Source of the DNA: Escherichia coli
GTDB taxonomy: Bacteria; Pseudomonadota; Gammaproteobacteria; Enterobacterales; Enterobacteriaceae
Direction: 5' to 3' (one strand)
NCBI RefSeq assembly: GCF_016903815.1
Contig: NZ_CP069973.1
Length of the DNA stretch: 64,000 bases
The notes under the pieces are model-generated. The model had not been told where the DNA came from. It saw only the letters and a program-made list of their open reading frames with translations, and did not search any database. How positions within the stretch are numbered: position 1 is the first letter of the stretch; each line of letters begins with the position of its first letter. A program made the position numbers and the translations under genes. Positions 43,475 to 48,964 of this stretch are shown here, piece after piece.

Positions 43475-45757
43475 TTACATAGATTGAGTGAAGGTACGAG
43501 TAATAACGTCCTGCTGCTGTTCTTTAGTCAGCGAGTTGAAACGTACTGCGTAGCCAGATACACGGATGGTCAGCTGCGGATATTTTTCCGGGTTTTCCAT
43601 CGCGTCGAGCAGCATTTCACGGTTCATCACGTTAACGTTCAGGTGCTGACCACCTTCGATGGATGCTTCGTGGTGGAAGTAACCATCCATCAGACCAGCC
43701 AGGTTGGTCTTACGAACTTCGTCGTCTTTACCCAGTGCGTTCGGAACGATAGAGAAGGTGTAGGAGATACCATCTTTAGCGTAAGCAAACGGCAGTTTAG
43801 CAACGGAAGTCAGAGAGGCTACTGCACCTTTCTGGTCACGACCGTGCATCGGGTTAGCACCCGGTCCGAATGGCGCGCCAGCACGACGACCGTCTGGGGT
43901 GTTACCAGTTTTCTTACCATACACAACGTTAGAAGTGATGGTCAGAACAGACTGAGTCGGGATAGCGTCACGGTAGGTGTGCAGTTTCTGAATTTTCTTC
44001 ATGAAACGTTCTACCAGGTCAACAGCCAGGTCATCTACACGCGGATCGTTGTTACCAAACTGCGGGTATTCGCCTTCGATTTCGAAGTCGATAGCCAGAC
44101 CGTCTTCGTCACGAATCGGTTTAACTTTCGCATATTTGATTGCAGACAGGGAGTCAGCAGCAACGGACAGACCAGCGATACCACACGCCATGGTGCGGAT
44201 AACGTCACGGTCGTGCAGCGCCATCAGAGAGGCTTCGTAGCTGTACTTGTCGTGCATGTAGTGGATGATGTTCAGTGCAGTGATGTACTGTTTAGCCAGC
44301 CAGTCCATGAAGTGATCCATGCGCTCCATCACTTCATCGTAGTTCAGGAGATCGCCTTTGATCGGCTCAGACTTCGGACCAACCTGCATTTTCAGTTTTT
44401 CGTCAACGCCACCGTTGATTGCGTACAGCATGGTTTTCGCCAGGTTTGCACGCGCACCGAAGAACTGCATTTGTTTACCAACGATCATCGGGCTTACGCA
44501 GCAAGCGATAGCGTAGTCATCGTTGTTGAAGTCCGGACGCATCAGGTCATCGTTCTCATACTGCAGAGAAGAGGTGTCGATGGACACTTTAGCAGCGAAT
44601 TTCTTGAAGTTCAGCGGCAGTTTTTCGGACCACAGAATGGTCATGTTCGGTTCCGGAGACGGACCCATGGTGTACAGGGTGTTCAGGAAACGGAAGCTGT
44701 TTTTGGTAACCAGGGTACGACCGTCGAGGCCCATACCACCGATAGATTCGGTTGCCCAGATCGGGTCGCCAGAGAACAGTTCATCGTATTCCGGAGTACG
44801 CAGGAAGCGAACCATACGCAGTTTCATGACCAGGTGGTCAACCATTTCCTGCGCTTCTTGTTCGGTGATCTTGCCAGCTTTCAGGTCACGTTCGATGTAC
44901 ACATCCAGGAAGGTGGAGGTACGACCGAAGGACATTGCAGCACCGTTCTGAGACTTAACAGCAGCCAGGTAGCCGAAGTAAGTCCACTGGATAGCTTCCT
45001 GAGCGTTGGTAGCCGGACCAGAGATGTCGTAGCCGTATTTCGCAGCCATTTCTTTCATCTGACCCAGAGCGCGGTGCTGTTCAGCGATTTCTTCGCGCAG
45101 ACGGATAGTCTGTTCCAGGTTTACGCCGTTTTCCAGATCAGCCTGCAGAGAGGTGAACTGTGCAAGTTTATCTTTCATCAGGTAGTCGATACCGTACAGC
45201 GCAACGCGACGGTAGTCACCGATGATACGACCACGGCCATAAGCATCTGGCAGACCGGTCAGAACACCGGATTTACGGCAACGCAGGATGTCCGGAGTGT
45301 AAACGTCGAACACGCCCTGGTTGTGAGTTTTACGGTATTCAGTGAAGATTTTTTTGATCATCGGGTCCAGTTCGCGGTTGTACGCTTTGCAGGAACCTTC
45401 GATCATTTTGATACCACCGAACGGGATAAGAGCACGTTTCAGCGGAGCTTCAGTCTGCAGACCAACAACTTTTTCCAACGCTTTGTTGATGTAGCCAGCG
45501 TCGTGAGAGGTGATGGTGGAAGCAACAGCGGTGTCAAAGTCAACTGGCGCGTGAGTGCGGTTTTCCAGTTTAACGCCTTCCATTACTTTGTCCCACAGGG
45601 TGGTGGTCGCTTCAGTAGCGCCAGCCAGGAAGGACTCGTCACCCTCGTACGGAGTGTAGTTTTTCTGAATGAAGTCACGGACGTTTACTTCATTCTGCCA
45701 GTCACCTTTGGTAAAACCTTCCCAGGCTGTGGCTAACTTTTCATTAAGCTCGGACAT
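43475..45757 (-). CDS. pflB: pyruvate formate-lyase (glycyl-radical enzyme)
   Basis: 760 aa; C-terminal glycyl-radical motif RVSGYAVRF; high codon-bias gene. Confidence 0.95.
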
Positions 45758-45811
45758 GTAACACCTACCTTCTTAAGTGGATTTTTTATTTACTGCGTAC
45801 TTCGACAACCA

Positions 45812-46669
45812 TTAATGGTGATCGTTTTCACGCAGGTAAATGACCCAGTATGTCAACCCAACCAACAAACCACCGCCGATAATATTACCGATCGTAACCG
45901 GAATCAGGTTATCAGTGATGAAGTTCATCACGGTCAGGTGAGAAAAATTTTCCGGTGCAGAACCGACAGCGGTCCAGAATTCCGGAGATGCGAAGTCGCG
46001 GATTACAATACCCATCGGGATCATAAACATGTTTGCGATACTGTGCTCAAAACCGCTGGCAACAAACATCGCGACCGGCAGCACCATAATGAACGCTTTA
46101 TCCATCAGGCTGCGGCCAGAATAACTCATCCATACTGCCAGACATACCATCAGGTTTGCCAGGATACCAAGGCAGACGGCCTCAATAAAAGTATGGTGCA
46201 CTTTGTGGTCGGCGGTTTGTAGGACGTTTAGTCCCCATTGACCATTCGCGGTCATATACTCGCCGGAAAGCCACATTAAAAGTACAAACAGCAGTGCGCC
46301 GACCAGGTTGCCAAAATAGACATTTAGCCAGTTTTTCGCCAACTGACCCCAGGTGATTCGCCCACTCGCCTTAGCAACAACAATCAACACTGTGGAAGTA
46401 AAGAGATCGGCTCCGCAGACAACACAAAGAATCAGCCCCAGAGAGAAGCAAATGCCGCCAACCAGTTTTGCCATGCCGAAGGGCATTGTTCCTGTGCCAG
46501 TGGTTGCTGTGATATAGAAGACGAATGCGATTGAGATGAAAACACCGGCGGTAATCGCCAGATAGAAAGTCTTAAGCGGATGTTTCGTTGCTTTATAGAC
46601 ACCTGCCTCTTCGGCCACTTTGGCCATTGCTGCAGGAAGTAAAAGATCAAAAGGGTTGTCAGCTTTCAC
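45812..46669 (-). CDS. focA: formate channel (GTG start predicted)
   Basis: FNT-family membrane protein; start placed at GTG giving (M)KADNPFDLLLP..., 285 aa; the ORF-track extension to 47008 is AT-rich promoter region. Confidence 0.8.
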   Translation of the reverse strand: MKADNPFDLLLPAAMAKVAEEAGVYKATKHPLKTFYLAITAGVFISIAFVFYITATTGTGTMPFGMAKLVGGICFSLGLILCVVCGADLFTSTVLIVVAKASGRITWGQLAKNWLNVYFGNLVGALLFVLLMWLSGEYMTANGQWGLNVLQTADHKVHHTFIEAVCLGILANLMVCLAVWMSYSGRSLMDKAFIMVLPVAMFVASGFEHSIANMFMIPMGIVIRDFASPEFWTAVGSAPENFSHLTVMNFITDNLIPVTIGNIIGGGLLVGLTYWVIYLRENDHH

Positions 46670-47074
46670 ACTAACTCTCTCTTTATTAAGTCGGCGACGA
46701 GATACTAACAAAGCATTATAGATGAGAAATTGATATAGATCATATCTCGCCTGGCTTATAGGCCCGTAACTCGCATGGTTTTTATGCAAATACGGAGTAA
46801 ATATTTGATTATCCAAATAAAAATAAATTTTAAAAATTAACAAATGAGTTGAATTTTTTCCGCATCCTCCGCTAAAACAGTTAATTAAAAGGGAGCACCA
46901 GGCGAATGAAGTAACAATATCGATCGTATTTATTAAATACAAATTACCGACATTTAACTTTATAATTACAATTATTTTATTAATGCAAATATATGTAAAG
47001 CGGGGCATTAAAAAAACGCCCCGTAATATAACTCAGACGAATCATTAAGCCTACATTGCGTAGGCTATTTGATT

Positions 47075-48835
47075 TTATTTTGCCCAGAATGCTGCTTTGG
47101 CGCGCTGCAGCTTTTCGTAGGCCTTCAACAACGACTGATGTGCTGCAAACGCGTGCAGATCGCTATCTACTGGTTGCAAGCCATAAAACGCCGCTTCGCC
47201 GCTCATTGCCGCACTGGCGGCTTCCACGGCATCTGCGCCGTACATGCGAACAAACGCATTCAAATATTGCAGCGGCTGGCGATCTTCTTCCTGCGCCAGT
47301 AATAACAACGTTTGCAGGCAGCGATAATAGTTGGCGCGTTCCGGACTAAATACTGATGAGTTAAACTCCATCGTCCATTCGGTCCAGACCAGAGCCTGTT
47401 CCAGATCGCCACCAGCCAGCGCCAGCATGGCTTTTAATTCACCGATACGCAGGGTGTACCAACCGTTATCCGACCCGGTCGCCAGACCCAACAGCTCACG
47501 CACGCGGGTAAAGTCATCAAAACCTTCTTCATCCAGTTGCTCGATGAGGTTCAGGTAATCTTCTTTTTCCCACTCGCTGCCTGGTAACGAAAGAATCGTT
47601 TCACGTAAATGGCTGCCCATACTGTTATTCGCCAGCCACAGATCTTCAGCCGGATAAATATCGGACATGCCAGGCACGATAATTCGGCAAGCATAAACGC
47701 CCAGATGCTCGTAATCGGCAATATAAACTTCTTTATCTTCTTTGTTGAAGATAGCCATCAGCGTAGCAAACTCTTCCTCCGTGGTGCCGGAGAAATTCCA
47801 GTCCACAAACGGATAATCGGCATCCTGCTTGAACAGGTCCCAGGAGATTAAACCGCTGGAATCGATAAAGTGCGTTTCGAGGTTGGTATGTTCAGCAACT
47901 TCTTCATCATCGAAGGTTGGCGGAGTAAACACATCCAAATCTTTCAGGCCACGACCTTGCAGCAGCTCGGTCACGGTACGTTCCAGTGCTACGCCAAAAT
48001 CAGGATGCGCACCGAAAGAGGCAAAGCAGGTGCCGTTAGCAGGATTAAACAGTACCACGCAAATCACCGGATACTGGCCGCCAAGCGAACCATCATAAGC
48101 AAAGATTGGGAAACCTTCTGCTTCCAGCGTTTCGATGGCTTCAACCACCGCTGGGTAACGCGCCAGCACGTCTGCCGGGATTTCCGGCAAGCTGATGCTT
48201 TCAGCAATAATGCGGTTTTTCACGTAGCGTTCGAAAACTTCGGACAACCCCTGAACGCGTGCTTCGTTGCGGGTATTGCCAGCGGACATACCGTTAGAAA
48301 CGTACAGGTTACCAATGATATTCATCGGAATATAAACGGTCTGATTGTCGGACTGGCGCGTAAACGGCAGACCGCAAATACCACGATCTTCGTTACCGGA
48401 TTGCAGGTCAATCAGCATACTGCCGGTCAATTCATTCTCCGGATCGTAAAATGCGCGCAGACGGTCATCGAGCAGCCCTTCTGGCACATCGTCATTTTCG
48501 CTCAGTGGGAACCATTTTTCGTTGGGATAATGCACGAACGGACCGTTGGCGATGGTTTCGCCCAGCCAGAAATCAGCAAAAAAGTAGTTGGTTGAGAGAC
48601 GCTCGAAATATTCACCGAGTGCAGAAGCCAGCGCCGCTTTTTTGGTTGCGCCTTTACCGTTGGTAAAACACAGTGCGCACTCTTTGTCGCGAATATGTAC
48701 AGACCAGACGTTAGGCACCGGATTCAGCCAGGAGGCCTCTTCAATCTGAAAGCCGAGGTCTGAAAGTTTTTGCTGGAAGCGAGCGATGGAATCTTCCAGT
48801 GCGGCATCTTTGCCGGGGATAAATGTTTGCGTCAT
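47075..48835 (-). CDS. ycaO: YcaO-domain protein
   Basis: 586 aa from internal Met MTQTFIPGKD...; synteny upstream of focA-pflB. Confidence 0.85.
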   Translation of the reverse strand: MTQTFIPGKDAALEDSIARFQQKLSDLGFQIEEASWLNPVPNVWSVHIRDKECALCFTNGKGATKKAALASALGEYFERLSTNYFFADFWLGETIANGPFVHYPNEKWFPLSENDDVPEGLLDDRLRAFYDPENELTGSMLIDLQSGNEDRGICGLPFTRQSDNQTVYIPMNIIGNLYVSNGMSAGNTRNEARVQGLSEVFERYVKNRIIAESISLPEIPADVLARYPAVVEAIETLEAEGFPIFAYDGSLGGQYPVICVVLFNPANGTCFASFGAHPDFGVALERTVTELLQGRGLKDLDVFTPPTFDDEEVAEHTNLETHFIDSSGLISWDLFKQDADYPFVDWNFSGTTEEEFATLMAIFNKEDKEVYIADYEHLGVYACRIIVPGMSDIYPAEDLWLANNSMGSHLRETILSLPGSEWEKEDYLNLIEQLDEEGFDDFTRVRELLGLATGSDNGWYTLRIGELKAMLALAGGDLEQALVWTEWTMEFNSSVFSPERANYYRCLQTLLLLAQEEDRQPLQYLNAFVRMYGADAVEAASAAMSGEAAFYGLQPVDSDLHAFAAHQSLLKAYEKLQRAKAAFWAK

Positions 48836-48964
48836 GAAAATCACTTTAGTCGTACGGAAAGCGCGCAATAATACGGGTTTTATCTCAAAGGCGCTATCAC
48901 CGCCGCCATGCCGATGAACTGTTGACTATGCTTTTAGTGGATAAACCACGATAAGAGCATAAAA

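Follow-up and report, generated by a model that had tools for sequence, protein, structure and literature searches.

A GTG translation start for focA in Escherichia coli and its conservation across the Enterobacterales

The window, a 64,000 nt stretch of E. coli DNA [RefSeq contig NZ_CP069973.1], includes the ycaO-focA-pflB region with all genes on the minus strand, as established from the open reading frame list and RefSeq mapping. Strain 7/2 is 100% identical to the window over the query, and the RefSeq focA CDS of that strain (locus L001, 932-1789) maps to 45812..46669 (minus strand), predicting a 285-codon gene followed by a TAA stop that encodes the formate channel FocA. Position 932 of L001 corresponds to window position 46669. 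The focA gene is directly upstream of pflB on the same strand and downstream of ycaO, and this gene order is also found in Hafnia, Edwardsiella, Serratia, Yersinia, an Erwiniaceae member, Pantoea and Gibbsiella. The plus-strand triplet CAC at 46667-46669 reads GTG on the minus strand (46669 to 46667), with AAAGAGAGAGTTAGT directly 5′ of it. The codons that follow in frame, AAA GCT GAC AAC CCT TTT GAT CTT, specify KADNPFDL, and the in-frame GTG that the sequence-only reading had described immediately before KADNPFDLL is present at this position.

RefSeq/PGAP annotation places the focA start at exactly this GTG in strains 7/2, K-12 MG1655 (b0904), Nissle 1917, ST18, RSHH22 and NCTC86. The K-12 gene [GenPept accession numbers NP_415424.1 and WP_000642546.1] predicts a 100% identical protein from the same annotated GTG and has the same flanking genes, ycaO and pflB. 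The K-12 and window leaders differ at 5 positions in 420 nt, and one of these, G in the window and A in K-12 at position -229, opens or closes the reading frame upstream of focA.

The 285 aa product matches the NCBIfam FocA equivalog model NF008069 with 634.3 bits (cut-off 440), aligning residues 1-285 to positions 1-285 of the 285 in the model. It also matches TIGR04060 (426.7 bits, cut-off 290.1) and PF01226, the formate/nitrite transporter family (263 bits), and the equivalog model for the paralogue FocB aligns from FocA residue 2. Residues 1-285 are identical to the chains in PDB entries 3KCU, 3KCV and 9G49, which are constructs built from the annotated ORF and hence not independent evidence. 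Residue 3 of Vibrio cholerae FocA aligns to residue 4 of the query, so the N-terminus is equally placed in a distant homologue. Alignment with characterised FocA proteins, named in the sequence-only reading as a means of checking the start, thus agrees with the N-terminus of both the solved E. coli protein (1-285) and the Vibrio protein.

A GTG start for focA is already annotated and published and, with GTG starts being common in E. coli (approximately 1 in 7 genes), the assignment is an ordinary result. Suppmann and Sawers reportedly identified the focA GUG by mutagenesis in 1994, and Beyer et al. are said to have obtained ∼20-fold more FocA after a GUG to AUG change in 2013; literature searches found no open paper restating the latter experiment. 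The gene is named as a GUG-start gene by Kohl et al. 2022 (NAR, PMC9841429; Table 3), and a 30S-seq preprint (10.1101/2025.04.04.647229) explicitly gives GUG as the focA start codon.

A lone GTG codon is statistically meaningless, and what exceeds chance here is its conservation. A scan of species-representative genomes provided 80 loci from different Enterobacteriaceae species, of which 79 had the N-terminus inside the fetched DNA and 77 were aligned. Nine loci from more distant Enterobacterales, fetched through exact proteins, were added to give a total of 88 lineages. The codon for residue 1 is GTG in 79/79 Enterobacteriaceae loci and in eight of the nine further lineages (Hafnia, Edwardsiella, Yersinia ruckeri, an Erwiniaceae member, Pantoea, Acerihabitans, Serratia fonticola and Gibbsiella), and the ninth, a widespread Serratia allele, has a TTG start (L090, 601-603). 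Over the 88 Enterobacterales lineages the census therefore stands at 87 GTG, one TTG and no ATG. GTG is kept in the Erwiniaceae locus even behind a strong GGGAGG Shine-Dalgarno (SD) sequence. The Serratia TTG allele has an AGUUUGA context that includes no overlapping 5′ start, and predicts a diverged N-terminus LKTDSPFDLILPAATAKIAE with Thr at the position of Met15.

The coding signature begins at the same codon. Variability at the first, second and third codon positions in the 77 aligned sequences is 0.032, 0.016 and 0.339, respectively, over +3..+300, and is flat at 0.21, 0.195 and 0.199 over -339..-1; third-position variation is thus seen downstream of the GTG and not upstream. Stops in the focA frame are found 4 codons upstream of the GTG in Mangrovibacter, Hafnia and Edwardsiella, 5 codons upstream in Kluyvera, 6-7 codons upstream in Pantoea, Serratia and Gibbsiella, and 12 codons upstream in Klebsiella, Raoultella, Phytobacter and some Kosakonia. 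Between these near in-frame stops (4-12 codons) and the focA GTG, those genera have no ATG, GTG or TTG codon.

The DNA upstream of the GTG carries promoter-like features. An FNR-box-like palindrome, TTGATATAGATCAT (46730..46743), has one mismatch to TTGAT-N4-ATCAA and is centred at -67.5. It is the only one-mismatch match in the focA upstream region, where a search for a second FNR box gave nothing convincing. The sequence TAGTAT (46702..46707, minus strand) is, from its position relative to the box, the putative -10 hexamer of an FNR-dependent promoter; it ends 7 nt before -26 and is conserved even where the flanking bases change in Yersiniaceae. The geometry of the FNR box and the position of TAGTAT agree in suggesting that transcription starts near 46695 (-26), which would leave a 5′ UTR of ∼26 nt. 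The centre of the box is 41.5 bp from this predicted start, and class II FNR promoters have their box centred at -41.5. With transcription starting at -26, no upstream in-frame translation start, such as the TTG at codon -14 (46711-46709), would be available on that transcript. A perfect and conserved TATAAT hexamer (46715..46720, minus strand) 8 nt upstream of TAGTAT may belong to an overlapping promoter, and overlapping focA promoters were reportedly described by Kaiser and Sawers in 1997. Further upstream, the promoter-like TTTACA-17-AATAAT at 46999-46971 would start transcription near -295. It is a consensus match only, and a P7 promoter was among the ideas set aside.

The conserved sequence TTTAATTAACTGTTT (46875..46889, minus strand), which is near-invariant as TTTTAATTAAC in the 77-species alignment, is just upstream of the upstream SD described below, and its resemblance is presumably to an ArcA box. 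An Rfam search of 45700-47100 returned nothing credible, the only match being a nematode snoRNA (E = 0.98).

Immediately upstream of the GTG is a purine run, AAAGAGAGAG (-15..-6; 46675..46684, minus strand), that forms a weak SD-like element. By the criterion of Kohl et al. 2022 (PMC9841429), focA lacks an SD of at least 4 nt. A 33 nt block, AGAGAGAGTTAGTGTGAAAGCTGACAACCCTTT (-13..+19; 46650..46682, minus strand), is invariant in the 77 aligned Enterobacteriaceae sequences and covers the SD-like run, the sequence GUGUGA and codons 2-7. It includes five consecutive invariant third positions, compared to 10 of 99 invariant overall. The block shows that the initiation region is under selection at the nucleotide level, over and above that on the protein sequence, and does not itself identify the cause.

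A second ribosome-binding element is located far upstream. The preprint (10.1101/2025.04.04.647229) describes an upstream ribosome-binding site (uRBS) for focA at -213 with a strong, conserved SD motif (uSD), mutation of which lowers focA-lacZ expression ∼10-fold. It also reports that 30S subunits bind at focA-213 independently of initiator tRNA, with no functional start there, that a tRNAi-dependent 30S toeprint is found at the focA start region, where mutation of the weak SD (SD_TIR) abolishes expression, and that the weak SD and GUG start need the distant upstream site for full focA expression. The uSD motif most likely corresponds to GGAGGA (-201..-196; 46865..46870, minus strand), given the published 5′ end at -213. 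GGAGG, GGGAG or GGGGG is found at this site in most of the 77 species but not in all, as several have GCGGCC, GCGCGC or AGACCC. As the published ribosome site at -213 is upstream of the predicted start at -26, there is at least one longer focA transcript.

The skp mRNA described in the preprint (10.1101/2025.04.04.647229) resembles focA in that it starts with GUG, has a non-classical initiation region and depends on an extra upstream SD-like motif for full expression. However, the extra motif of skp is 14 nt upstream of its SD, in what is termed a 'long RBS', and that of focA is ∼200 nt upstream. Two further candidates near the focA uSD were rejected. An 11-codon ORF from an ATG that overlaps the uSD (GGAGGATG) has no spacer between SD and ATG, its ATG is not conserved, and according to the preprint there is no functional start at the site. 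Pairing of CUCC (-226..-223) with the upstream GGAG would involve only 4 bp and a 21 nt loop, and covariation is partial and inconsistent.

RNA folding with ViennaRNA predicted pairing of UUGUUAGU (-42..-35) with GCUGACAA (+6..+13), giving the GUG an unpaired probability of 0.05-0.16, compared to 0.63 with the -26 leader. A start-occluding helix in the long-leader transcripts was nevertheless rejected, as the -10 hexamer TAGTAT makes up its upstream arm and the pairing is lost in Yersiniaceae with no compensation. Compared with shuffled sequences, the short-leader fold shows no advantage (z = 0.58) and the fold of a 326 nt leader is marginal (z = -2.09). GTTAGT occurs twice, at -40..-35, where it overlaps TAGTAT (46701-46711), and at -6..-1, directly before the GTG (46670-46676). 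No covariation was found for the pairing of either copy with GCTGAC (+6..+11).

The annotation, the family model, the census, the coding signature, the upstream stops, the literature and the FNR/TAGTAT geometry all favour the same codon. Translation of focA, which opens the focA-pflB operon, almost certainly starts at the GTG at 46669-46667 (minus strand). The claim of the sequence-only reading that focA uses a GTG start is thereby borne out by the RefSeq and K-12 annotations, the full-length match to NF008069, the census, the codon-position variability and the stops upstream.

The GTG is also the 3′ GUG of a GUGUGA hexamer (46666..46671, minus strand), in which a 5′ GUG (46671-46669) followed by UGA (46668-46666) overlaps the real start. 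The hexamer is kept in 87 of the 88 lineages, including three that differ at -3 to -5, and A is found at +4 in 88/88. Kohl et al. 2022 (PMC9841429) include focA among twelve genes with a gtGTG start (Table 3). They found that ribosomes can initiate at either GUG of GUGUGA reporters, that termination-reinitiation dependent on RF2 rescues expression of the 3′ frame, and that expression of native narQ increases 7-8-fold when the 5′ GUG is removed. As in focA, the annotated start of narQ is the 3′ GUG of a GUGUGA, overlapped by the 5′ GUG and UGA start-stop (PMC9841429). The two differ in that narQ has a GGAG SD at a defined spacing and start-stop and reinitiation were shown experimentally, whereas focA has a weak purine-run SD and the likeness is one of sequence. 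By analogy, ribosomes might also start at the 5′ GUG of focA, stop on the UGA and either reinitiate at the 3′ GUG or be lost, with the hexamer tuning the level of FocA. The behaviour of the reporters and of narQ, the presence of focA in the published list and the near-universal hexamer favour dual initiation of this kind. Against it, the Serratia TTG allele has no 5′ GUG (AGUUUGA), indicating that the 5′ GUG is not indispensable, and the GU at -2/-1 may be conserved through other constraints in the invariant block. In addition, the lack of an SD of at least 4 nt kept Kohl et al. (PMC9841429) from predicting ambiguity for focA. On balance dual initiation at focA is considered somewhat unlikely, and it adds to the explanation that the 3′ GUG is the start rather than replacing it. 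Were it to operate, the focA start would be a second native GUGUGA start-stop site like that of narQ and, in concert with the distant uRBS, would actively restrain FocA synthesis relative to that of PflB, a suggestion that is offered tentatively.

A start further into the gene, at the ATG for Met15 (46625..46627, minus strand), would produce a 271 aa FocA and leave the GTG and the next 14 codons untranslated. Met15 is the first ATG in the conserved frame, and 271 aa products are called by some pipelines (P0053, P0061 and P0075). However, codons 7-14 vary mainly at third positions, with conservative L/I/V and A/P/E changes, Met15 is replaced by Thr in Serratia, and the FocA and FocB equivalog models cover the protein from residues 1-2 onward. 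In the preprint (10.1101/2025.04.04.647229), 30S subunits also bind in a tRNAi-dependent manner at the annotated start region. A start at Met15 is thus highly improbable. As constraint on coding is seen before Met15, and the near upstream stops have no start codon between them and the GTG, no in-frame start other than the GTG gives the conserved N-terminus.

On the other side of the GTG, the longest mechanical ORF (45812..47008, minus strand) predicts a 398 aa protein from an ATG at -339 (47006..47008, minus strand) and exceeds the 285 aa FocA by 113 codons. The sequence-only reading was correct that an upstream in-frame ATG adds about 113 AT-rich codons, as the 398 aa frame does open at 47008 and the 339 additional nt have a G+C content of 31%, but what it called leader codons is non-coding promoter and 5′ UTR DNA. 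Two inverted repeats separate the ycaO stop (47075) from the focA regulatory region, and neither qualifies as a canonical terminator for ycaO on the minus strand. AGCCTAC-ATTGC-GTAGGCT (47048-47066) has a terminator-like score on the plus strand only, and the 11 nt loop of CGGGGC/GCCCCG (46999-47021), just after ycaO, holds the spurious upstream ATG.

In K-12 and most species, in-frame stops separate the upstream ATG from focA. The in-frame TGG of the window at -231..-229 (46898..46900, minus strand) is TGA in K-12, ST18, RSHH22 and NCTC86, with the G to A change at -229 closing the frame in 4 of the 8 E. coli strains sampled, and in another E. coli, the species representative (L002), the frame is interrupted by TAG at -147. 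Of the eight E. coli strains compared, 7/2 and Nissle alone have the frame open, both with TGG as in the window. Across 420 upstream positions L002 and the window differ at 26, and the FocA proteins they predict are identical. A stop-free run of this length arose in 3 of 20,000 shuffles of the composition, and the other two frames hold 10 and 13 stops. Over 85 lineages, the leader has a mean of 6.3 stops in the focA frame compared to 7.8 and 10.0 in the other frames, and selection for a stop-free focA frame in the leader is ruled out on this count. The 113 aa extension has no NCBIfam or Pfam match. The open 113-codon frame is an accident of this lineage, and the upstream DNA is non-coding regulatory DNA.

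A 398 aa FocA that starts at 47008 with a 113-residue N-terminal extension, for which the frame open to the GTG, the rarity of such a run at 31% G+C and the product reported by automated gene callers in public assemblies (P0001, 4,963 member sequences) might be cited, is already effectively refuted and retains a negligible probability, given the stops in other E. coli strains, a number of stops in the focA frame of the leader similar to that in the other frames, the lack of codon periodicity or a protein-family match, and the position of the ATG adjoining the ycaO stop and upstream of both the FNR promoter and the published ribosome site at -213.

Gene calls in public assemblies (P0001-P0012, P0053, P0061 and P0075) include FocA proteins of 398 aa, the largest cluster, as well as 359, 353, 325 and 271 aa, and NCBI-named FocA entries are 285-287 aa long. 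The systematic mis-starts arise because a GTG start is combined with an upstream frame that is variably open. In the window, the longest ORF also extends beyond the annotated start of ycaO, whose mechanical ORF (47075-48868, minus strand) has a TTG start 11 codons upstream of MTQTFIPGKD..., predicting 597 aa compared to 586 aa in the annotation.

With translation beginning at the GTG, the codon is read as fMet to give the 285 aa formate channel MKADNPFDLL.... A non-ATG start combined with a weak purine-run SD makes initiation intrinsically inefficient, and this probably keeps the membrane channel FocA far scarcer than the co-transcribed and very abundant pyruvate formate-lyase (PflB). The 339 nt upstream are the regulatory region of the operon and 5′ UTR, with the FNR box, the -10 hexamer, a transcript with a predicted leader of ∼26 nt and at least one longer transcript, and the upstream ribosome-binding site boosts initiation at focA.

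No ATG was found in the 88 lineages though only one transition separates GTG from ATG and variation at third positions is ∼34%, suggesting that the weak start codon is selected for. As the 33 nt block is invariant within the Enterobacteriaceae, conservation of the GTG there is inseparable from that of its neighbours, and it is the nine distant lineages that carry this argument. The weak focA start appears to be maintained by selection, and its role would be to limit FocA. The proposal in the sequence-only reading that a non-ATG start is consistent with translational control of the channel is reasonable in view of the census and of the dependence of the weak SD and GUG on a distant upstream site reported in the preprint (10.1101/2025.04.04.647229).

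The comparative evidence on the focA start is a useful correction to the frequent mis-starts of gene callers. The sole residual novelty is the possible start-stop throttle at the conserved GUGUGA of focA. With its non-ATG start found in all 88 lineages and its GUGUGA in all but one, focA is a good natural test case for two recent ideas on bacterial initiation, overlapping start-stop sites and distant upstream ribosome-binding sites.
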